Part shown: piece after piece, positions 3,666-56,569 of the stretch
How positions within the stretch are numbered: the first letter of the stretch is position 1
Layout: every line of letters starts with the position of its first letter
Origin: Nitrosopumilus sp.
Lineage (GTDB): Archaea > Thermoproteota > Nitrososphaeria > Nitrososphaerales > Nitrosopumilaceae
DNA: 64,000 bases
Assembly: GCA_965203315.1 (NCBI GenBank)
Contig: OZ241857.1
Coordinates: 192,001-256,000 of the forward strand
Reading direction: 5' to 3'
Position numbers and translations under genes: made by a program
Notes under the pieces: generated by a model
What the model was told of the DNA's origin: nothing
Seen by the model: only the letters and a program-made list of their open reading frames with translations
Database searches by the model: none

Positions 3666-3807
3666 GCCACTCTGATCTTGTTACTTCAATAATTTAAGTG
3701 AATATATTGTATCTATGTGATGCTGGTCATTACGTTTGGTTTTGTAAATGCGATACTCTGTTAGTTAGGGATCTGTTAATGATCCCACATTGAGATCGTA
3801 CTGGTCA

Positions 3808-38162: not shown

Positions 38163-38666
38163 ATGGGACGACCAAGAAAGAACGCGGCTAGTAAAACCAA
38201 AGCTGCTTCAACTGGTAAAAAGAGAGGCAGAAAACCCGGTACTAAAAACGCAAAGACACGAGGCAGAAAGCCCGGTACTAAAACCTCATCTGCAACTGGT
38301 AAAAAGAGAGGCAGAAAACCAGGTACTAAAAACGCAAAGACACGAGGCAGAAAGCCCGGTACTAAAACCTCATCTGCAACTGGTAAAAAGAGAGGCAGAA
38401 AACCCGGTACTAAAAACGCAAAGACACGAGGCAGAAAGCCCGGTACTAAAACCTCATCTGCAACTGGTAAAAAGAGAGGCAGAAAGCCCGGTACTAAAAC
38501 CTCATCTGCAACTGGTAAAAAGAGAGGCAGAAAACCAGGTACTAAAAACGCAAAGACACGAGGCAGAAAGCCCGGTACTAAAACCTCATCTGCAACTGGT
38601 AAAAAGAGAGGCAGAAAACCAGGTACTAAAAACGCAAAGACACGAGGCCGAAAGCCTAGCAAGTAA
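38163..38666 (+). CDS. Highly basic AT-hook-like repeat protein
   Basis: N-terminal GRPRK plus 11 RGRKP motifs in 36/48-bp tandem units; no acidic residues. Confidence 0.75.
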   Translation: MGRPRKNAASKTKAASTGKKRGRKPGTKNAKTRGRKPGTKTSSATGKKRGRKPGTKNAKTRGRKPGTKTSSATGKKRGRKPGTKNAKTRGRKPGTKTSSATGKKRGRKPGTKTSSATGKKRGRKPGTKNAKTRGRKPGTKTSSATGKKRGRKPGTKNAKTRGRKPSK

Positions 38667-39866
38667 TCATAAAATATCAATTCGTCTTCAAGACGGATTA
38701 TATTTTCTTTTTCTACTAGATGTAGTAGGTATGTGTATAGACGTACAAGGATGTTCAATCTCTGGTGTTTTAAACACGATACACTTTTAGTGCATGTTCA
38801 TTCTTGACACGTTCTATTCACAATCCATTCAACTTGTTGATGACTGGTGATTTGCTCTTTTAGATGTGGAGCCCAGTCGTTACATATACCATAAGATGTA
38901 GAACAATAGCAAGATGTGTGGATCGTATGCACACAATCAAAGTTTATCTCCTGTTGCCTGAACTAGAGTATTGTCCAACACTGCTCAATAGTATTGACAT
39001 ACTATAGTGACAAGATAAATTAATTTCAGTATCAACTATTTTTGACATCATAAGTTATGAATTAATGTGTTCTAGACATTACAATGGCATCAAAAAAGAG
39101 ATCTGTCAATACTTCAAAGACATCTAAATCGCCCAGACGATGGTCTGGATCACAGAGAAAAATACTCAAGAAGGGTCTTAAGAAAAGAAAACACCAACAC
39201 ATACGACACAAAGTCATAGCTCTCAAGATGATCATAGTCGATGGCTGTACAGTAGCACTTGCTGCAAAATCTGTTGGGGTAACAGAACGTACAGTATACA
39301 ATTGGCTCAATCTGTTTAGCGAAAAGGCTCTTTTTGGGCTGGAAGACAAGGGAGGTCGTGGAAGAAAACCCAAGATACCTGACGAAACATATGAGCAAAT
39401 CCTAGACACTCAAGAAAGAACAACACCTAGAGACATGTACAAGTTACTTTTAGACGAGACAGGTGTAAGACAACACTTTGATACGATAAGAAAGAGGATG
39501 AAAAAGTTAGGGTGGTCAAGGAAACGTTCACAAACGGCATACAGAAATCGAGCTAAACCTCCAGAGATCAAAGCATTCCGTAAAAGGGTACTGTCCATGT
39601 ATGGACATCTCAAGAAGAAAGGTTGGAAACTGTTTGCAATGGACGAGACAATCTTGACGTTAGAAACCAAGAACGGTGCTAAATTCTGGACCAAAATAGG
39701 CAGGCCTGTATATGCTACCTCAAAGGGGTCACGTGATAAAGTGATCGTAATGGGGGCAATAGGTCAAGGTAGAGTGCAATACTTTGAGATAGTAGAGAGT
39801 ACAAACAAGGCATGTTTCTTGGAGTTTCTGAAAAACCTGTACAAACGCTTTCAAAAAGTGGTAAGA

Positions 39867-41205
39867 TATTATCCATGTGAATAGCTTATAAAGATTTACT
39901 CTGATTCACGACTATTGTGCATAGCATACGCTAGGGATGTGTTCCCATGTAAAGGACTGCGAACATATATCCATTCGAGTGGTTAACTCACTATCATTCT
40001 TCGTCCATTCGTCAAAATCTGTACATTTAGGTCGCCGAGTGATATCTCAAATATCTTCCGTACGTTAATGATTTCGACTACAATGTGTGACATAATCATC
40101 CCTATCTATAAGCATATGGTACATCAATCGTAGTAGTTTGGAGGCAGTTGCAACAGTTGCTTTGCTTACCGCGCGTCTCTTTTTAATTCTGTTATGAAAT
40201 TTTGTAATGTAACTATGGGGCTCACATTTTATGTGTACATGAACTGCTTCGGTCAATGCCCATCTAAGCATTTTATCACCTTTCCTCGTTATATGTCCAT
40301 GATTTTGTTTACCAGCTGAATTACGAACAGATGGTACTATTCCTGCATACGAACATATCTTACGAACAGTTGGGAATCTCTTGACATCTCCAATACTAGA
40401 TATTACAACAAGTGCAACAAAGTTTCCAACTCCGGGAATCGTCTTTAACAACTGTGCATCTTGTGATCTCTTTACCTCCTCACGCATTTTAATATCCAAT
40501 TGTCTAATCATTTCTTCATGGCAAGTTATCATATCTAGATAGTTGTCTATTCTATAATCCTCAAGTTTCTTCAATTCCTCTCTAAATGACTTGCTAAAAC
40601 TTGAACCAGGTATTTTAATCCCATATTGCAGTAATATCCCATGTATGAGATTCTTGTATTTTGTTCTACTCTTTACAATTACATCCCTATGTCGAACCAA
40701 CTGTTTTAATTTAACAGTGTATTCACTAGGAACAAAACAAGGCGAGATATAATTTCCTCTTAAAAGATCTGCCAGTGTCCATGCATCCACCTTGTCTGTC
40801 TTTTTCTTTGATTCGGCAATAGCCTTTGTTTGATATGGATTCGATAGTACTACATCAAATCCCAATTCATCTGTCAAGTATCTATACAGCCAATACCATA
40901 CTGACGATGACTCCATCACACAACGTGTATTGAGTGGTGTAAATTGTGCAAAGAATTTTTTGAGACTGTCATGATCTGTAGCAACACGCTCATTGAGTAT
41001 ACGCTTGCCATCCTGATCCATTGCTGCAATTTGCAGAAACCTCTTGTGTGCATCTATTCCGATATAGATCATCTTGTTTTTCTTTTTTAGATGGGTAATC
41101 TGTTCGTTTGCATTTTCTCTTTTAGATCGCTTTACAGGTGATCGCTTGGATCGACTCACATACCTTCTATCATCTGAATGTACTCTGATCGGCTTCTTCA
41201 CATAT
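39867..41205 (-). mobile_element. IS110/IS1111-type element, copy 1
   Basis: 1339-bp inverted near-duplicate of 42883-44221. Confidence 0.92.
40065..41201 (-). CDS. IS110-family DEDD recombinase
   Basis: IGIDAHK, VMES, KTDKVDA, IPGVG and RNSAG motifs; real start may be MIYIGID. Confidence 0.93.
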   Translation of the reverse strand: MKKPIRVHSDDRRYVSRSKRSPVKRSKRENANEQITHLKKKNKMIYIGIDAHKRFLQIAAMDQDGKRILNERVATDHDSLKKFFAQFTPLNTRCVMESSSVWYWLYRYLTDELGFDVVLSNPYQTKAIAESKKKTDKVDAWTLADLLRGNYISPCFVPSEYTVKLKQLVRHRDVIVKSRTKYKNLIHGILLQYGIKIPGSSFSKSFREELKKLEDYRIDNYLDMITCHEEMIRQLDIKMREEVKRSQDAQLLKTIPGVGNFVALVVISSIGDVKRFPTVRKICSYAGIVPSVRNSAGKQNHGHITRKGDKMLRWALTEAVHVHIKCEPHSYITKFHNRIKKRRAVSKATVATASKLLRLMYHMLIDRDDYVTHCSRNH

Positions 41206-41299
41206 GGTTAGGTCAAGAAATGTAGGTCAAGAAATGTAAACTAAAAGGACAACTTTATGCGATATCCTAACTTAAACACCGCCTTTACCAACTAGAGTC

Positions 41300-42880
41300 A
41301 TGTCTAAGATTCTTGCGTACCAAGAGCAGATAGCCACTCTAAAGGCAGAGAAACAAGCAATGGCTAAGGAGATGACACAGCTAAAGAATGCCAAGAAAGA
41401 GAGTGACGCAGCAGTCGAATCTCTTCAAACACAACTAGCACAAAAGAGCAAGAACATGCTAAAGGTGTACAAGATTTTGATTACTGCACTGCTAGGACTC
41501 CAAGTATCACCTAATGCAATAGTTGCATGCATCACTGCGTTTAAGAAAGTGATTAACATTATTGAACGTGAAGAAAATTTATCCAAGACCAAGATTCGTA
41601 ACACCAAAAAGAAGATAGATGACAAACAAGAAAAGATTAAAGCTCAAACAGAACAGGCCAAAGAGAAAGAGAAACTAGGAGAGATTTCTAATAATCCTAA
41701 TACTCCACAATCTCGAAAACCAAAATCGGGTACAAAAAAAGTAAAACTAGTAACCGTACCAAAACCGGTAGGACGACCAAAGGGATATGATGGAATCACA
41801 CACGATATATCTGCAGACGAGATCGTACCACATAAAAAAGAACAATGTGATGATTGTGGAAGTCAAGATATGACAAACGTGTTCGCTGGACACACAATAT
41901 CTATGGATTTAGAGTGCAATATCAAAGTCATAATGCATAACGGATACAAATATGCCTGCAATTGTTGTGGCAGTGCAGGTAACACGCTAGATAACATACC
42001 AGACGTATTAAACAATACAATGCTAGGCGTGAATTTAGGCTGTATGGCGACTATAATGAGAGAGTGTGGCAGCAGTATAAAGTCAATAACTACATCTTTA
42101 CAGTGTTTGGATCCACGCATCTCTCACAACATGGTAACTGGAGCAATAAACGAGGTTGGCGACAGACTCAAAAAAGAAGCGGACAAGATTGCAGAACGCA
42201 ACCAAAAGTCAAGATATACACACATGGACGAGACATCACTATCTCTTTTAGCAGCATTGGGATGGGTTTGGGTGTTGGTAGGTGATTACGGTACGCAATT
42301 TATGATAGGACCATCACGTGGAAAGAAATTCCTAAAAGAGAATTTTGGAAAATATGTCTACATACCACTCGTATGTGATGGATATTCGGTGTATTTTTTG
42401 TTTAAAATACGGCAGCGGTGTTGGGCGCACGTATTGCGACACGCGGAAAGTGCAGTGTGTGATGTACGTACATTAATGATGTTTCGGAGGTTGCATGCAC
42501 TATTTGAGATTGCCACTCGACTACAAGCAAAGGATCCCAATTGCGTAGACCTATATCTCAAATATGCGGTAGATGATCTCATACGCGAGACGTTGCGGCT
42601 TGCAGCTGCATACAAAAAGATGGATATCAAATTTGGTACTCATCTAGAGAATGCTGCACATGAACTGTACACATTCGTGACACATCCGGGCATGGAGCCA
42701 ACAAACAATCGGGCAGAACGTGCTCTGAGAAGGCTCGTGCTATTCCGCAAGACGTGTCAACATGTCGTATCTGAGAAAGGTAGACAACGATTGAGTTCAA
42801 TCTTTACATGTATAACAACATGGAGGCAACAAGGACTCAATCCATACGAAGAAATGCTAAGAGTTGTGCGTGAGACCTAA
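41300..42880 (+). CDS. IS66-family transposase
   Basis: Coiled coil, Zn finger, MDET, CDGY, QRCWAH and TNNRAER motifs. Confidence 0.92.
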   Translation: MSKILAYQEQIATLKAEKQAMAKEMTQLKNAKKESDAAVESLQTQLAQKSKNMLKVYKILITALLGLQVSPNAIVACITAFKKVINIIEREENLSKTKIRNTKKKIDDKQEKIKAQTEQAKEKEKLGEISNNPNTPQSRKPKSGTKKVKLVTVPKPVGRPKGYDGITHDISADEIVPHKKEQCDDCGSQDMTNVFAGHTISMDLECNIKVIMHNGYKYACNCCGSAGNTLDNIPDVLNNTMLGVNLGCMATIMRECGSSIKSITTSLQCLDPRISHNMVTGAINEVGDRLKKEADKIAERNQKSRYTHMDETSLSLLAALGWVWVLVGDYGTQFMIGPSRGKKFLKENFGKYVYIPLVCDGYSVYFLFKIRQRCWAHVLRHAESAVCDVRTLMMFRRLHALFEIATRLQAKDPNCVDLYLKYAVDDLIRETLRLAAAYKKMDIKFGTHLENAAHELYTFVTHPGMEPTNNRAERALRRLVLFRKTCQHVVSEKGRQRLSSIFTCITTWRQQGLNPYEEMLRVVRET

Positions 42881-42882
42881 CC

Positions 42883-44221
42883 ATATGTGAAGAAGCCGAT
42901 CAGAGTACATTCAGATGATAGAAGGCATGTGAGTCGATCCAAGCGATCACCTGTAAAGCGATCTAAAAGAGAAAATGCAAACGAACAGATTACCCATCTA
43001 AAAAAGAAAAACAAGATGATCTATATCGGAATAGATGCACACAAGAGGTTTCTGCAAATTGCAGCAATGGATCAGGATGGCAAGCGTATACTCAATGAGC
43101 GTGTTGCTACAGATCATGACAGTCTCAAAAAATTCTTTGCACAATTTACACCACTCAATACACGTTGTGTGATGGAGTCATCATCAGTATGGTATTGGTT
43201 GTATAGATACTTGACAGATGAATTGGGATTTGATGTAGTACTATCGAATCCATATCAAACAAAGGCTATTGCCGAATCAAAGAAAAAGACAGACAAGGTG
43301 GATGCATGGACACTGGCAGATCTTTTAAGAGGAAATTATATCTCGCCTTGTTTTGTTCCTAGTGAATACACTGTTAAATTAAAACAGTTGGTTCGACATA
43401 GGGATGTAATTGTAAAGAGTAGAACAAAATACAAGAATCTCATACATGGGATATTACTGCAATATGGGATTAAAATACCTGGTTCAAGTTTTAGCAAGTC
43501 ATTTAGAGAGGAATTGAAGAAACTTGAGGATTATAGAATAGACAACTATCTAGATATGATAACTTGCCATGAAGAAATGATTAGACAGTTGGATATTAAA
43601 ATGCGTGAGGAAGTAAAGAAATCACAAGATGCGCAGCTGTTAAAGACAATTCCCGGAGTTGGAAATTTTGTTGCACTTGTTGTAATATCTAGTATTGGAG
43701 ATGTCAAGAGATTTCCAACTGTTCGTAAGATATGTTCGTATGCAGGAATAGTACCATCTGTTCGTAATTCAGCTGGTAAACAAAATCATGGACATATAAC
43801 GAGGAAAGGTGATAAAATGCTTAGATGGGCATTGACCGAAGCAGTTCATGTACACATAAAATGTGAGCCCCATAGTTACATTACAAAATTTCATAACAGA
43901 ATTAAAAAGAGACGCGCGGTAAGCAAAGCAACTGTTGCAACTGCCTCCAAACTACTACGATTGATGTACCATATGCTTATAGATAGGGATGATTATGTCA
44001 CACATTGTAGTCGAAATCATTAACGTACGGAAGATATTTGAGATATCACTCGGCGACCTAAATGTACAGATTTTGACGAATGGACGAAGAATGATAGTGA
44101 GTTAACCACTCGAATGGATATATGTTCGCAGTCCTTTACATGGGAACACATCCCTAGCGTATGCTATGCACAATAGTCGTGAATCAGAGTAAATCTTTAT
44201 AAGCTATTCACATGGATAATA
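42883..44221 (+). mobile_element. IS110/IS1111-type element, copy 2
   Basis: Sub-terminal IR ATGTGAA; about 200-bp 3' non-coding region. Confidence 0.92.
42887..44023 (+). CDS. IS110-family DEDD recombinase
   Basis: Nearly identical to the 40065-41201 product. Confidence 0.93.
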   Translation: MKKPIRVHSDDRRHVSRSKRSPVKRSKRENANEQITHLKKKNKMIYIGIDAHKRFLQIAAMDQDGKRILNERVATDHDSLKKFFAQFTPLNTRCVMESSSVWYWLYRYLTDELGFDVVLSNPYQTKAIAESKKKTDKVDAWTLADLLRGNYISPCFVPSEYTVKLKQLVRHRDVIVKSRTKYKNLIHGILLQYGIKIPGSSFSKSFREELKKLEDYRIDNYLDMITCHEEMIRQLDIKMREEVKKSQDAQLLKTIPGVGNFVALVVISSIGDVKRFPTVRKICSYAGIVPSVRNSAGKQNHGHITRKGDKMLRWALTEAVHVHIKCEPHSYITKFHNRIKKRRAVSKATVATASKLLRLMYHMLIDRDDYVTHCSRNH

Positions 44222-44509
44222 TCATACAAAAAGTGATACTGCTGCTCGATGGTCCCAAGACGCATAAAGGAGAAGAGGTCGAAGAGTTCATCAAGGGCAA
44301 GGATATCAAACTCGTCTATCTGCCAAGAGCAATACCCGAGTTCAATCCAATCGAAGAGTATTGGCATCAACTCAAACGAGAGATCAAAGTTGGAGTATAC
44401 TATGAGACAGTTGAAGAGATGGAAGCTGCTGTGCGTGACTATCTAAAAAAGACACGACATACGCTCGATCTTTTGGCATTCATAAAAAGAGAGATCGTTG
44501 CATAATGCG

Positions 44510-51426: not shown

Positions 51427-51862
51427 TCTAGCAATTAGTCATTTGTATTGTATGATGCCGATCGAATATCGTTTAAGTCACGAATGTGTTGTATGGATAC
51501 GATAGAGTTTGAACTCATGGTTTGCCCGTGTATTCATTGATGAGGAATCTGCTATGCCGATCTTCAACATGTGTTCGAACTTCTATTATCTTAATAGTAT
51601 TATTGGTGGTGAGTTAAGCCTATGCATAGCTCAAAAAAGTTGGTTTCGCCTAGGAACCATCTCTTATTTTGATAATTCAAAAGGTCTTTTCAATATGAAG
51701 ATGAATCTATCATACAGATACAAAAGATTGATCGTAGACACAAGTCTGTCAACATTAGTAAAATACATAATCCCCTAATCTGACGATACATGCAATGAGT
51801 ATCTGCATAGAGTTAGAACAATATGTGAAAGAAACTAGTTGCCTACAGATGACGCGATTCGC

Positions 51863-51981
51863 TATCCATTATCCATTATCCATTATCCATTATCCATTAT
51901 CCATTATCCATTATCCATTATCCATTATCCATTATCCATTATCCATTATCCATTATCCATTATCCATTATCCATTATCCAT
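51863..51981. repeat. (TATCCAT)17 simple sequence repeat
   Basis: Perfect heptamer array abutting TTATATAA. Confidence 0.95.
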
Positions 51982-54870
51982 TATATAATGACACAAAGTT
52001 TGAGGGGTGCCTCTAGATGGGCACCTCAAAGGCGTCAACCTTTGATGATGTGCTATGTATAATACGAGCATCTGCAACGAGTACCTCTGATCTAGGCAAA
52101 CGATTCGAGAGACTGACCAAAGACTTTTTCAAGATAGATTCAATGTATAGTAGACGATTCAGACGCGTCTATCTGTGGTCAGAGTGGCCCAAACGAGACG
52201 GCACAGACACGGGAATCGATATTGTGGCAGAACAGTTTGATGGTACACTCTGTGCTGTACAATGCAAGTGCTATGATGACTATGCCAGTCTAGACATGAA
52301 GTCGGTTGCCAAGTTTCTGGCCAAAGCAAACTCGCTCGGTATAGAGAACAAGATTCTAGTGTATACCGGCGATACATTTACTAGTCATGCACAAAAGTTG
52401 TTGCTTGACTCCAAGTGTTCCATAATAGATCAAGAACACTTTCGTAGTTCTAGTATCGATTGGAGTGACTATCCAAAGCTTGTACGAGTCAAAGATCAAA
52501 AACAGCTCAGACCTCATCAGGTATCTGCACTAAAAGACGTGATACATGGATTTCAAAAATATGATCGTGGTAAACTGATCATGGCGTGTGGTACAGGCAA
52601 GACTCTAACAGCACTGCACATTGCAGAAGAACAGGTCGGTATAGGTGGTATAGTACTGTATGTTGTACCTTCTATCTCTCTGATACTACAGAGTATGCGA
52701 GAGTGGTCCGACAACGGTACCATACAACATAGTTACATGGCTGTATGTTCAGATAAATCTACAGGCGAAGACGGTTCCATAACAGAACTAGAGTCACCGG
52801 TATCTACAGATCATATGACACTACGCCCCTACATTGTATCACGACCAAAAGATGCAATGACAGTAATATTCTCTACGTATCATTCTATAGACGTTATAAA
52901 ACAAGCTGCAAAAGATGTCCAGTTTGATCTGATACTATGTGATGAAGCTCATCGTACAACGGGCGTAGAAGACAAGTCGTTCTTTACAGCTGTACACAAG
53001 GACACAAACATACACGGCAAGAAACGACTCTACATGACTGCTACACCTCGTGTGTACAGCGATGTTATACAAGCCAAGATGGGCAAGGTAATCTATTCTA
53101 TGGATGATGAAGAGAGATATGGGCCAACATTCCATAGACTGAGTTTTACAGCTGCAGTACAACAAAAGGTACTCTCTGACTTTAGAGTCAAGATTGCAAT
53201 CGTACCAGCTGATAAAATAGACGCACAGTTTCAGCAATCGGTAACAGACGAGGACCACTCCATACCGTTAGACGAACGTACGTTACTTGCAGCTGTATGG
53301 CACGGCATACAGTATCCCGATGATAATAAAACACCAAAACTGTTACAACGTGTTATAGCATTTGCAAATCGTATAGACCGTTCTCAAATGTTTGCAGGCG
53401 AGATAACAGACGGAAACAACATTGATCGCAGTTTTGCAAATATCGTATCCCAGTATGAAGAAAAAAAGAACACGGGACATAAAGTCCAAGTCAAACACAT
53501 GGACGGCAAGACTAGGGCAATAGAACGAAGAGACAAACTACGTTGGTTAGACGAGAGTACTGATGATCCCAACACTTGTAGAATAGTCTCTAATGCCAGA
53601 TGCCTATCTGAGGGTATAGATGTACCTGCTCTGGACGGTGTAATCTTTTTAAATCCGCGCAAGTCTCGAGTCGATGTAGTCCAGTCTGTAGGTCGAGTCA
53701 TGCGTAGATCAGCAGGTAAGAAATATGGCTATGTGATATTACCTGTTGCAATTCCAGCTGGTGTAGAATATCACAAGGCACTAGACAACAACAAGACTTT
53801 TGCTGTCGTATGGCAGGTACTAAACGCACTACGATCCCATGACGAGTCGTTTGGTGCCGAGATCAACAGTCTGATACTGGACAAAAATACAGAGAATACG
53901 AGTCCCACTCCTAGAATCAGCGTATCTGTTCTAGATGATACATTTATCGAGAGTGAACCGATTACAAAGTTCTTTGATCATGTAAAGTCTCAGCTGGTCA
54001 AAAAGGTAGGAGATGTAGACTATTATGACAAGTACGGTGAAAAGATTGGTTCTGCAGCTAGTACGATACAGTCTAGAATCGAAAATCTGTTAAAGACAAA
54101 TGATACCATACAACACGAGGTATCTAAATTTCATAAATCACTACAAGATCTGATAAACGATACCATATCTGAATATGATACTGTACAGGCCCTAGCACAC
54201 CACATGGTACTTGCTCCTGTATTTGATGGACTATTTACAGGACAGTTCACATCATACAATCCGATATCTAGAGCATTTGAAGATATCATATGTACCATGG
54301 GACTACGCGAAGAGCTCGAGATCCTAGAAGAATTTTATGATGAGGTACAGCAAGAGATCAAGAACATCAATACAGGTACAGCAAGACAAGAGTTCATCAA
54401 GAGAATATACGGAAATTTCTTTGAATCTGCTGATAAAAAAGGAACAGAACAACACGGTATCGTATACACACCTGTACAGATCGTCGATTTTATAATACAT
54501 AGTGTACAGTATATTCTCAAGAAGGAATTCAACACCGAATTTGCAGACCGACAAGTCAAAGTTCTAGACCCATTCACAGGCACAGGAACGTTCCTTGCAC
54601 GACTCATAGAATCTGGATATCTGGGTGAGAACATTTATGAAAAATACAAACACGATCTATACGCAAACGAACTGATCCTACTAGCATATTACGTTGCAAC
54701 TGTAAACATCGAGACGGTATATTCTAGTGTACGAAACGGACACAGACATGTTCCGTTTGATGGCATCAGTTATACCGATACTTTGAAACTAAACCCACAG
54801 TACAGAGAAGATGACGAAATTGAGAGAAGAAATTACCAGCAAAAAATACATGGCGAACATTTCAAAAAAG

Positions 54871-56569
54871 GTATGAGGTTAGGTCTCACGCACAACTTTT
54901 AGGAGTGTATCATAGACGTTGAGACCTTGTTGCTCCCATGTTGTTACACATGTAAAGATATTGCCAACTCGTCGTTTACTCTCCTCAGATACAATACGTT
55001 GAGTTACCTTGCGGAATAGCACCATTGATCGTATAGCTCGCTCTGCTCTGTTGTTTGTGTATTCCATACCATAGTATAGCACAAATGTGTATAGATCATC
55101 TGCAGCATTAGCTAAATGAACTCCAAATTTACGACAAGATTCGTTGTCTAGTTTCTTGTACTCTGCTGCAAGTGATAATGTCTTTTGCACTAGATCATCT
55201 ACTCTGTATTTTAGGTATATGTCCACATGATTGGGATTGTCCACCTGTAGTGCTTTTGCAATTTCAAGTAGTTTCTGCAATCTTTTGTACATTAGTACAG
55301 TATGTACGTCACACATTGTATCTTTTGCATTTCGCAGTATGTGCGCCCAACAACGTTGCCGTACATTGAATAGTTTGTACACGACATATCCATCCGACAC
55401 GAGTGGTATCAGAATATACTTTTTGAACGTTTTTTCTAGAAAATCTTTTGTACGCTCTGGCGATATGATGAATTGCGTACCATAATCGCCGACAAGAACC
55501 CAGACCCATCCCAATTTCGCAGCAAGGGACATCGACGTCTCATCCATGTAGATTACCTTGGATTTTAGGTTCATTCTCTCTATTTTTTTGACATATTTGT
55601 CTAGTTTATCGGCAATCGTGTCTATTGCCCCCGTTACCATCTTTTTAGATATACACGGGTCTAGGCATTGAAGAGTACTAGTTATTGTTCTGATACTACA
55701 GCCATTCTTTCTCATTATGGTTGCAATCACGCCTAGAATTGGGCACAACATTGTGTTGTGTAGTATGTCTGGGATGCTGTCGAATGTATCGCCTGATGCG
55801 CCACAATCTCTACAGTTGTAAAAGTATCCGATATGGAGTATGTGCAATATTATGATCTGTATGTCAATCGTTCTCTTTTGTCTAGACCTCTTGTTGTCAA
55901 CATGCTTACTGCCACATCCATCACACTTTTCTTTTTTATGATGTCTTGTCTTGTCTGTTTTTATGTTGTCGGAAACTCCTTTGTGACCCTTGTCTTGTCC
56001 TGCTTTTTTCCATTCGCTTTTAGATTTTCTTGTACCCTTTTTTACATGATCTGGTTGTTTTGATGAGGGTACGTTAGAATTGTCGAGCTGCTTGCGTCTC
56101 GTTTCTTTGTTCTTGGCCTGTGCTGTTTGTACCTCTATCTTTTCTTTTTTACCCTCTATCTTTTTTCTGGTGTTACGAATCTTGGTCTGTGATAGTTGTT
56201 GACCACGTTCTATAATTTTGATCATCCTTTGGAATACATTAAAACAATCATTGATTGAATTTGGAGATACTTGGAGTCCCATAATTGTAGCAAGTAAAAT
56301 CTCGTACAGTTTCATATTCATTCTCTTCTGCTTTGCAACTTGTTTTTGTAGACTCGTAATGGTCTCTTGTTGTTGTTCGATGGTATCATTTTGCTGCTTG
56401 ACAGTATCCTCTAGATCTGCTATCTTGGCAGATGTCTCCCTATCTTTTTTGGTAGTCTTTTGTCTCGCGATCTGTCTAGACATTGTCATAATTGGTAATG
56501 TTTGGATTTAGCCTAGATTATCTAGAAAAGTTGTCCCTTTTGGTAGATCTTTTAAACCTAACCTCGTAC
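54871..56569 (-). mobile_element. IS66-like element with intact ends
   Basis: TIR GTAYGAGGTTAGGT; TSD CAAAAAAG. Confidence 0.92.
54879..56489 (-). CDS. IS66-family transposase
   Basis: MDET, SDGY, QRCWAH and TNNRAER motifs. Confidence 0.92.
   Translation of the reverse strand: MTMSRQIARQKTTKKDRETSAKIADLEDTVKQQNDTIEQQQETITSLQKQVAKQKRMNMKLYEILLATIMGLQVSPNSINDCFNVFQRMIKIIERGQQLSQTKIRNTRKKIEGKKEKIEVQTAQAKNKETRRKQLDNSNVPSSKQPDHVKKGTRKSKSEWKKAGQDKGHKGVSDNIKTDKTRHHKKEKCDGCGSKHVDNKRSRQKRTIDIQIIILHILHIGYFYNCRDCGASGDTFDSIPDILHNTMLCPILGVIATIMRKNGCSIRTITSTLQCLDPCISKKMVTGAIDTIADKLDKYVKKIERMNLKSKVIYMDETSMSLAAKLGWVWVLVGDYGTQFIISPERTKDFLEKTFKKYILIPLVSDGYVVYKLFNVRQRCWAHILRNAKDTMCDVHTVLMYKRLQKLLEIAKALQVDNPNHVDIYLKYRVDDLVQKTLSLAAEYKKLDNESCRKFGVHLANAADDLYTFVLYYGMEYTNNRAERAIRSMVLFRKVTQRIVSEESKRRVGNIFTCVTTWEQQGLNVYDTLLKVVRET

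Follow-up and report, generated by a model that had tools for sequence, protein, structure and literature searches.

In the genome of an archaeon, Nitrosopumilus sp. (assembly GCA_965203315.1, contig OZ241857.1), we analyzed a window of 64,000 nucleotides (positions 192,001 to 256,000 of the forward strand) in which two copies of a 1339-bp insertion sequence (IS) lie in inverted orientation in the two ends of another transposon, IS66A, which is itself inserted into an IS630-like transposase gene. We are confident that the 1339-bp element belongs to the IS1111 group, that its own predicted two-loop guide RNA matches the tips of IS66A, and that it inserted into both of them. Two short blocks in the non-coding 3' end of the element co-vary, across lineages, with the DNA that flanks each copy. 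The predicted specificity is for a sequence of about 15 nt and not for IS66 as such: the ends of IS66A are the best matches, and look-alike chromosomal sites are used as well. Coordinates are those of the window, unless they are given as C1:… or C6:… for the contigs of the window's own genome (G000; 2.47 Mb in 7 contigs).

A nest of three transposons and a TA core

The two inverted repeat arms (39861-41214 and 42874-44227) are 1354 nt each and 99% complementary, with 1659 nt between them. Each arm has an open reading frame (ORF) of 378 amino acids with the Pfam domains PF01548 (2.7e-29) and PF02371 (9.1e-24). The transposase of IS66A, encoded between the arms (41300-42880, + strand), has 526 amino acids and matches PF03050 (3.7e-28) and NF033517 (186.8 bits, with a cut-off of 180). 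Outside the arms are the two halves of the IS630-like transposase gene, both on the + strand: the 5' part (39084-39860) has a helix-turn-helix domain and the start of DDE_3, and the 3' part (44236-44505) has DDE_3. The 8-bp sequence AAAAAGTG is present on both sides of the insert, at 39853-39860 and 44228-44235, and in four uninterrupted IS630-like copies elsewhere in the genome, the empty site is continuous as ...CTTTCAAAAAGTGATACTG..., so the 8-bp duplication by IS66A is real. IS66A is 1689 bp with both tips and cores (its body is at 41211-42877, + strand). It has a single ORF and no accessory genes, and its terminal repeats match at 14 of 15 positions. The DDE transposase, the terminal inverted repeats and the 8-bp target duplication fit the IS66 family. 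An initial annotation of this DNA had described two near-identical, inverted IS110 copies of 1339 bp in both ends of an IS66 element, with the 8-bp duplication retained outside, and all of this is borne out.

To define the boundaries of the inserted element, we compared occupied and empty sites. The genome has only one other copy of IS66A, at C1:1214463-1216124 (98.5% identical). Its uninterrupted right end, which is the only empty end of IS66A, reads GAGACC-TA-ATATCATAC, while in the window, where the right end is occupied, the sequence is GAGACC-TA-[ACCATATGTG...CACATGGA-TA]-ATATCATAC. Similarly, a sister copy of the element (copy k, 67% identical) occupies a site that reads CATCAC-TA-[ACC...GGA-TA]-GAATTACAC, and there are four empty sites that read CATCAC-TA-GAATTACAC. 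These empty sites put the two copies at 42880-44218 on the + strand (copy a, including the TA at 44217-44218) and 39870-41208 on the - strand (copy c, also including one TA), and they show that the core is TA. In other words, the element is ACCATATGTG...CACATGGA plus one TA. The left junctions have their TA at 42878-42879 (copy a) and 41209-41210 (copy c).

The insertion point is 9 nt from the tip of IS66A, with GTAAGATAT-TA-GGTC at the left and GTATGATAT-TA-GGTC at the right. Copy c severs the outer 9 nt of the left terminal repeat (GTAAGATAT, 39861-39869), and the outer 9 nt of the right terminal repeat (ATATCATAC) are at 44219-44227. The initial annotation was right that both copies lie at the same position and in the same orientation relative to the repeat, but its junctions were 3 nt off, which gave a distance of about 6 nt. 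Its AT core and the target that it reconstructed do not fit the empty sites, and the "GGT" that it counted as part of the IS66 end is the IS's own terminal ACC.

Contigs from four public sequencing runs branch exactly at 42880, at 44218/44219 and at 41211, and the branches lead into the flanks of other IS copies and into the empty end of IS66A. These contigs, which break inside repeats and are too short to reveal inversion, circles or depth, have no joint that would indicate an inversion. A contig joint at 41219/42912, on opposite strands, was considered as a sign of inversion and rejected: it is the junction of a 42-bp deletion in copy e, described below. Another joint, at 39851/44227, is explained by the uninterrupted IS630-like copies.

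The empty sites have a single TA, and there is no duplication beyond this shared core at the insertions. All 11 copies that keep both junctions have the arrangement flank-TA-IS-TA-flank, and every full-length copy has the same orientation relative to its target. For the lineage in the window, the target is GACC-TA-ATATC(A/T)TAC, with the TA shared. The 15-bp repeats of IS66A hold this target 9 nt from each tip, so two separate insertions would fill both ends, and the IS copies are inverted because the repeats of IS66A are inverted.

The assembler might have duplicated a single IS copy, and the contigs from the public runs, none of which span the repeats, do not speak against this. But there are 11 differences between the two copies over 1339 positions, so this is not a single sequence that was assembled twice. 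Also, each junction has the correct TA structure, and both tips of IS66A and its duplication are present. We find an assembly artefact hardly credible. (Of the 11 differences, 8 cluster within 127 nt, at 43588-43714, or positions 709-835 of copy a. This cluster may be a gene-conversion patch from another lineage.)

Another possibility is that the entire 4.4-kb structure moved as a unit, with IS66A already filled, in which case the IS did not immobilize it. The 8-bp duplication does flank the outer tips, and by itself this does not give the order of events. But copy c is identical to copy b, which is elsewhere in the genome (on contig C6), and differs from copy a at 11 sites, so copies a and c arrived separately, and c arrived recently. 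Furthermore, the second copy of IS66A has one empty end and a different 8-bp duplication (CAAAAAAG), and a repeat that is split 9-TA-4 by 1.3 kb of DNA is probably not usable by a DDE transposase. Movement as a unit is therefore improbable. Instead, IS66A would have inserted first into the IS630-like gene, and two separate IS insertions would have followed, which gives three levels of nesting. The split repeat should disable IS66A until the IS is precisely excised. The initial annotation proposed that IS66A is immobilized and that its center is invertible, and both remain plausible.

The genome has 18 matches to the element. If one copy that was reconstructed from two of these fragments is counted, there are 12 full-length or nearly full-length copies. 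Group 1 (98-100% identical) comprises copies a, b, c, d, e and f; group 2 (93%) comprises g, h and i; and copies j and k are 71% and 67% identical. The twelfth, copy m, was initially two fragments; once reconstructed, it proved to be a full copy with an intact ORF of 375 amino acids. Within group 1, copies b and c are identical, and the differences are 1 for d, 5 for e, 11-12 for a and 23-25 for f. The identity of b and c, along with the single difference in d, implies that this lineage moved recently. Copy e, in the left end of the second IS66A, has a 42-bp deletion between two TACATT repeats (C1:1216080-1216130), which removed its left junction, its subterminal repeat and its GTG start codon. 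Copy e is dead, and that end of IS66A is permanently broken.

Guide blocks, flanks and site use

In an alignment of 11 copies, two short variable blocks come directly after the stop codon of the recombinase gene (44021-44023 in copy a), on either side of a small hairpin. The 3' block is the left flank plus the core, and hence is complementary to the bottom strand, while the 5' block reads as the right flank's reverse complement, and hence is complementary to the top strand. In group 1, the blocks are AAGATAT(T) (5') and GACCTA(A) (3'), and the target is GACC-TA-ATATCTTAC. The corresponding sequences are GTTCTGT, AAGTTA and AAGT-TA-AAAGAACC for group 2; GTAATTC, TCACTA and CATCAC-TA-GAATTACAC for lineage k; ACCGGT, GAACTTA and GGAACT-TA-ACCGGTTAC for lineage m; and TCGAATA, AAAAATA and CAAAAA-TA-TTTTCGATGG for lineage j, where the right side is displaced by 2 nt. 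In copy a, the predicted top-strand guide is AAGATATT (44031-44038, + strand) and the predicted bottom-strand guide is GACCTAA (44055-44061, + strand); in the target, they overlap by AA, at the core. A third block, ATGGATA (44114-44120, + strand), is the element's right end plus TA. This donor block co-varies with the right end: ATGGATA occurs with ...CATGGATA and ATAGATA occurs with ...CATAGATA.

If the recombinase protein alone read the terminal repeat, then the matches between blocks and flanks would be coincidental. In favor of this view, the RNA is predicted from sequence only, and its fold energy is no better than that of shuffled sequences. However, the blocks and flanks co-vary. For the five lineages in this genome, the true assignment of guides to targets scores 69, which is the unique maximum of the 120 permutations (the next best scores 62, and the mean is 46). 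Across 15 lineages, including those from other genomes, the six positions 5' of the TA match in 64 of 90 cases; wrong pairs of guide and target average 1.57 matches out of 6, and none of 100,000 random assignments reached the observed sum. Also, there are 95 differences between groups 1 and 2 over 1339 positions; 11 are in the last 215 nt, and 8 of these 11 are in the two blocks. Finally, the RNA guides of IS1111 elements, known as seekRNAs, are described in passages of PMC11187229 as shown experimentally. Targeting by the protein alone is very improbable. The initial annotation had stated that IS110/IS1111 elements are RNA-guided, and the co-variation supports this for the predicted guides of this element.

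We also asked if the predicted guides account for which sites are occupied. We considered sites with an exact match to GACCTAA and excluded the IS copies themselves and the occupied junctions. Of the 132 unoccupied sites, just 1 matches the top-strand guide at 8/8 positions and 1 at 7/8; 9 match at 6/8, 34 at 5/8, and 87 at fewer. The empty 8/8 site is a relic IS66A-like end at C1:899054, and the empty 7/8 site is the empty end of IS66A. The occupied sites with exact GACCTAA match at 8/8 (copy c), 7/8 (copy a) and 6/8 (copy b), and none match at 5/8. (Copy f has 6/7 on the left and 8/8 on the right.) Occupancy follows the match to the predicted guides.

The window includes another IS66 element at 54871-56569 (- strand), which is unoccupied. 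The initial annotation had quoted the end of this element, and that end is present, but it is not an empty site for the same transposon. The element belongs to a different species, IS66B, with 66% nucleotide identity and 52% amino acid identity to IS66A. Nor does it lack a single base of the target: its ends match the bottom-strand guide at 7/7 and the top-strand guide at 5/8, with three substitutions in the stretch that the top-strand guide would read. In most copies of IS66B, the left half of the target is perfect and the right half is at 5/8, and 0 of 23 IS66B ends are occupied. The IS66B ends are poor targets and a natural negative control, with a full match to one guide and 5/8 to the other.

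A third type, IS66C (539 amino acids, PF03050), has its own 8-bp duplication. Lineage m is inserted 9 nt from the left tip of IS66C, and the right end is empty (1 of 2 ends occupied). There are 9 full-length copies of IS66B (plus fragments), 2 copies of IS66A and 1 copy of IS66C. These numbers are as expected if the insertions restrain the host transposon, although with three IS66 types this is an anecdote and not a test. A further IS66-like tip, …GACC-TA-ATGTC(A/G)TAC, is present in four copies (C1:428447, C1:1072098, C5:68443 and C6:40964); it matches the top-strand guide at 6/8 and is unoccupied. The IS66-type tips in this genome have TA at positions 10-11 in common. A search for IS66A in 30 related genomes, 18 of them from the same genus, found just one match of 65 nt (E = 7.7e-4).

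The copies in group 1 are not confined to IS66 ends. Copies a, c and e are in IS66A ends, while copies b, d and f are at look-alike chromosomal sites with no IS66 gene nearby. (Their neighbors include genes for Topo VI-A, TBP and a PRC-barrel protein.) Because just 3 of the 6 group-1 copies are in IS66 ends, the guide would specify a short sequence and not IS66 as such, and the initial claim that the element targets IS66 ends was overstated. It holds insofar as no other sites match the predicted site of about 15 nt better than the ends of IS66A do. The other lineages have other targets. Group 2 is inserted 8 nt from the tip of the terminal repeats of an IS6-like element (PF13610) and of the related MITEs (miniature transposable elements with inverted repeats) of about 170 bp; 3 of these ends are occupied, and 45 exact 13-mers are unoccupied (3/48). 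Lineage k lies within a transposase gene, that of a DDE_Tnp_4 element of 1.55 kb, at a distance of 733 nt from the end of this element, and lineage j adjoins the end of a 222-nt repeat.

These sites bear on whether there is any special relationship with IS66. The guide might simply specify a sequence of about 15 nt that the ends of IS66A happen to carry, with no consequence and no selection. Copies b, d and f fit this view, as does lineage k, which is in a transposase gene and not in a terminal repeat; and with two copies, IS66A is a tiny sample. On the other hand, 3 of the 4 ends of IS66A are filled; lineage m, whose guides are different, is at the same 9-nt position in IS66C; group 2 is 8 nt from the tips of IS6-like and MITE repeats; and relatives in other Nitrosopumilaceae are at the tips of IS66-like repeats, beside an IS66 gene or flanking MITEs. 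In this genome, 9 of the 12 full-length copies are in repeated elements. We think that a chance relationship is a serious possibility but doubtful.

Two observations concern individual copies. A 53-nt tandem duplication of the left flank adjoins copy j (C1:1709254-1709360). A relic fragment at C1:936468-936653 (L014) has the top-strand block of group 1 (AAGATAT) along with a bottom-strand block, GAACTA, that is similar to the one in lineage m. This pair of guides may be recombinant.

The predicted RNA and the recombinase

The 1339-bp element encodes a DEDD recombinase. In the 195 nt at its 3' end, we propose, it also encodes a seekRNA or bridge RNA that is about 100 nt long and contains two internal loops. 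In the target loop, the 5' block, AAGAUAUU, would pair with the top strand just to the right of the insertion point, and the 3' block, GACCUAA, would pair with the bottom strand to the left of the insertion point plus the TA. Together, the two blocks would specify GACC-TA-ATATCTT. The second loop would carry the element's own right end plus TA (AUGGAUA). If it behaves like the IS1111 elements that have been characterized, the element would be excised as a circle, with its ends abutting on one TA; the predicted junction is ...CACATGGA-TA-ACCATATG. The RNA would pair with both the circle junction and the target, and the recombinase would exchange strands at the TA. Such an exchange should leave no duplication beyond the shared TA and should fix the orientation.

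In copy a, the predicted target-binding loop is at 44025-44067 (+ strand), with an outer stem of 44025-44029 with 44063-44067 and a hairpin at 44039-44052. The predicted donor-binding loop is at 44082-44127 (+ strand), with an outer stem of 44082-44086 with 44123-44127 and a hairpin at 44098-44112. The predicted RNA of copy c (39961-40063, - strand) is the mirror image of 44025-44127. RNAalifold, given a MAFFT alignment of 10 sequences, recovered the donor loop, with its outer stem, its inner hairpin and 4 compensatory pairs. It recovered the donor loop only. Because MAFFT alignments put the target-loop hairpin out of register, we used a covariance model instead. When the guide blocks were held unpaired, 9 of 10 sequences formed an outer stem and a hairpin, for the target loop and for the donor loop alike, and the outer stems co-vary. 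Without such constraints, minimum-energy folding of individual sequences often pairs the two similar hairpins wrongly.

The covariance model was built from 12 sequences and evaluated on 25 distinct rows. It has 35 matches in 64 sources, all of them 3' of the recombinase gene where this could be checked; one weak match is in a locus from Archaeoglobales. In the model alignment, the bases pair in 85.5% of cells, and both sides have changed in 12 of the 17 pairs. The observed values were not reached in any of 500 shuffles, and slid controls gave 28-55% pairing. For helices 1, 3 and 4, pairing is at 91-96% of cells, and both sides have changed in 8 of their pairs. The predicted RNA has the two stem-closed loops of a bridge RNA, with one loop for the target and the other for the donor ends.

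The recombinase gene (42887-44023, + strand; 40065-41201, - strand, in copy c) begins with a GTG that is 7 nt inside the left end, for a protein of 378 amino acids; starting from the ATG at 43016, the protein would have 335. The family domains begin near this ATG, and from there the protein matches NF033542 ("IS110 family RNA-guided transposase") with 265.5 bits (the cut-off is 140). In 12 of the 14 copies or lineages that we compared, which include relatives with about 45-50% protein identity, the GTG frame continues without a stop into the recombinase domain. In copy k and in one copy from locus L020, it is interrupted before the domain (61 and 93 amino acids are open); the second L020 copy (133 amino acids) and L036 (320 amino acids) reach the domain but stop early. 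The N-terminal extension from the GTG is basic, has about 40-70 amino acids and contains recurring motifs. Between groups 1 and 2, it differs at 10 of 43 residues (42887-43015 in the window), as compared to 93% DNA identity overall.

Just inside the right end is an A/T-rich, TATA-like heptamer, TTTATAA (44196-44202, + strand). In all 10 lineages that we aligned, the distance from the heptamer to the right end is exactly 16 nt including the TA, without gaps; five positions of the heptamer are invariant, and a sixth is nearly so. In a circle, the spacing from the heptamer to the GTG would be 23 nt. For archaeal promoters, this is the spacing that is expected if the transcript starts at the start codon. 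We infer that the circle junction forms a promoter, in archaeal form, that would give a leaderless mRNA. Junction promoters are known for IS110/IS1111 circles, according to passages of PMC11187229.

At the right end of IS66A, the IS gene might also be transcribed with its host. The stop codon of the IS66A transposase (42878-42880) consists of the TA core and the A with which the IS begins, and because of this A, the codon survives the insertion. The IS gene has the same orientation and its start is 7 nt after this stop codon, so co-transcription with the IS66A transposase is possible.

In other respects, the element looks like an IS110/IS1111 IS, and the initial annotation's view that its architecture is of the IS1111 type holds up. 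It has an N-terminal DEDD (RuvC-like) domain and, at the C-terminus, PF02371; a non-coding region of 195 nt downstream (44024-44218), as compared to 7 nt upstream of the GTG or 136 nt upstream of the ATG; subterminal inverted repeats (ATGTGAA at 42885-42891 on the + strand, with its partner TTCACAT at 44207-44213); asymmetric terminal extensions of 7 nt (TAACCAT, with the shared TA counted on the left) and 3 nt (GGA); the IS1111 order of the guides; and a fixed orientation. The recombinase has weak matches to the structures of IS621 (E = 5.6e-10) and ISCro4 (7.8e-12). Its C-terminal stretch G-I-V-P-S-V-R-N-S-A-G can be compared to the motif G-x-x-P-x4-S/T-G: the serine aligns with the serine of ISCro4, and it is followed by A instead of G.

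Several findings weigh against our explanation. No RNA, circle junction or polymorphism between empty and occupied sites was seen in the data covered here, in which the public runs were contigs. Membership in the IS1111 group is suggested by architecture and sequence features. The subterminal repeat is just 7 bp; passages of PMC11187229 give 11-13 bp as usual for IS1111 elements, and passages of PMC11208160 give 7-17 bp for the IS110 family, so 7 bp is at the low end. Copies a and b match their own sites imperfectly (the 7/8 and 6/8 given above), some distant relatives (L020 and L029) have a weak top-strand match, and the match on the right is shifted by 2 nt in copy d and in lineage j. By eye, it is ambiguous whether the 5' side of the donor loop is complementary to the left end. 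Helix 2, which is the target-loop hairpin, pairs in only 56% of cells, and the covariance alignment was fitted to the model, so it leans towards it. The single-sequence fold of 44020-44135 is not more stable than shuffles (z = +1.16), and a scan of 39700-44400 against Rfam found no match at E ≤ 1.

The displaced matches are TA-GC-ATATCTTAC in copy d (C1:673039-674377) and TA-TT-TTCGA in copy j (C1:1707924-1709253). They may reflect tolerance of a longer spacer between the two halves that the guides read.

Known systems, relatives and possible hyperparasitism

IS elements that insert into the ends of other transposons have precedents. IS4321 and IS5075 are IS1111-type elements that reportedly target the terminal repeats of Tn21-family transposons. 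Like our element, they have a DEDD recombinase and subterminal repeats, and they insert at one fixed position and orientation in another transposon's terminal repeat. Unlike them, our element has an archaeal host and an IS66-type repeat of about 15 bp as its target, it fills both ends of one copy, and half of its copies are outside the target transposon. Nor are its insertions confined to terminal repeats, which is the habit of IS4321 and IS5075: copies b, d and f are elsewhere, and lineage k is internal to its target element. Similarly, in Pseudomonas putida H, IS1383 is said to integrate into IS1384's inverted repeats (a 2001 report by Mueller et al., which we compare by its title only). It is also an IS110/IS1111-type element with another IS's inverted repeat as its specific target, but it is bacterial and its target is from another family.

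The closest experimental counterparts are ISEc11, ISKpn4, ISPst6 and ISPa11. As described in passages of PMC11187229, IS1111 seekRNAs are encoded in the downstream non-coding region, with the complement to the top strand 5' of the complement to the bottom strand and with an overlap in the target, and the terminal extensions are 7 and 3 nt beyond the repeats. Our element shares these features with those four, and the natural reprogramming between its close relatives resembles that between ISEc11 and ISXne4. Unlike our element, whose RNA is predicted, those four are bacterial and experimentally shown. Also, our element has a 7-bp subterminal repeat instead of 11-13 bp, as well as an ORF whose N-terminal extension is basic and begins 7 nt from the left end. 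Compared to IS621 (PMC11208160, in part; PDB 8wt6), which is from the IS110 group, our element likewise has two loops in its predicted RNA (target and donor), a shared dinucleotide core and a related recombinase. It differs in that the predicted RNA is at the 3' end instead of the 5' end, the guide blocks come in reverse order, and the core is TA. Archaeal elements of the IS110 family are known from ISfinder, and passages of PMC11187229 name ISHvo9 and ISHvo10. Our literature search on IS66 ends as targets of IS110/IS1111 elements, or on such elements in Nitrosopumilus, found nothing relevant; ISfinder itself was outside this search.

The closest relatives of the recombinase are from metagenome-assembled genomes of Nitrosopumilaceae (43-52% identity over near-full-length matches). 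These relatives, and the genes for TBP and Topo VI-A beside other copies, support the initial annotation's view that the host is archaeal. The next relatives are from Archaeoglobi, Thermoplasmata and other archaea. The relatives' elements have the same ends (A-N-C-N-TATGTG ... CAT-R-GATA), the TA core and the two-loop region at the 3' end. The five lineages in this genome and about ten from other Nitrosopumilaceae have different blocks, each of which matches its own flanks. In one genome, copies are at the very tip of a MITE with an IS66B-like repeat, and a convergent pair fills both ends of a MITE of about 150 bp (L021). A second genome has a convergent pair on either side of a 74-nt segment whose ends are inverted (L033), and a third has a copy directly beside the left end of an IS66-family gene (L031). 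So, filling both ends of a small transposon is recurrent in this clade. In L021 and L033, which are from other Nitrosopumilus genomes, the side of the IS that is turned to the invaded element is the opposite one, as compared to the locus in the window. A search for the group-1 element in 60 genomes from the same genus found just one weak relative (78% identity over 197 nt), and it added no further sites, whether empty or occupied.

Some relatives have other repeats near their ends. A relative in a metagenome-assembled genome of Nitrosopumilaceae (L032) has a direct repeat of about 32 bp on its two sides (2270-2300 and 3775-3805), which is far longer than the TA core. Two others have tandem duplications of the right end, of 51 nt and 110 nt (L031:3680-3785 and L023:3641-3855). 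Tandem duplications beside IS ends may be footprints of aberrant recombination. The window also has two repeats that are unrelated to any of these elements: a tandem array at 38176-38740, with alternating spacing of 48 and 36 nt (a period of 84 nt), and a long (TATCCAT)n microsatellite at 51835-52005.

Taking the genomes together, we tentatively suggest, at somewhat less than even odds, that this IS1111-like clade in the Nitrosopumilaceae is mainly a hyperparasite of transposon ends, that it is often reprogrammed, that it restrains its host transposons, and that its expression is coupled to the circle and leaderless, possibly with co-transcription with the host. The targets would be IS66 types, IS6-like elements and their MITEs. 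As for reprogramming, this genome alone has five guide pairs, and the loci that we examined have about 15. Restraint would explain why the invaded IS66A and IS66C have 2 and 1 copies while the non-matching IS66B, with 9 full-length copies, is uninvaded. And if the suggestion is correct, then the leaderless mRNA would come only from the circle, as an archaeal version of the bacterial junction promoter.

To our knowledge, almost all characterized examples of RNA-guided IS110/IS1111 elements are bacterial. RNA guidance and natural reprogramming are already established (PMC11187229 and PMC11208160, in part), and targeting of terminal repeats has the precedents discussed above. What is new here is the host clade, the IS66-type and IS6-like targets, the reprogrammed lineages beside their own empty sites, and the possible junction promoter built with archaeal promoter logic. 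These recombinases are under development as programmable tools for writing genomes, and this archaeon offers a natural experiment: close lineages with different guide pairs, and occupied and empty targets side by side. The IS66B ends act as its control, and the two right-hand matches that are displaced by 2 nt hint at tolerance in spacing. More broadly, these are transposons that parasitize transposons, at three levels of nesting, and they may affect which IS66 species proliferates. The known mechanism is unchanged, but it would extend to a new domain of hosts and to new targets.

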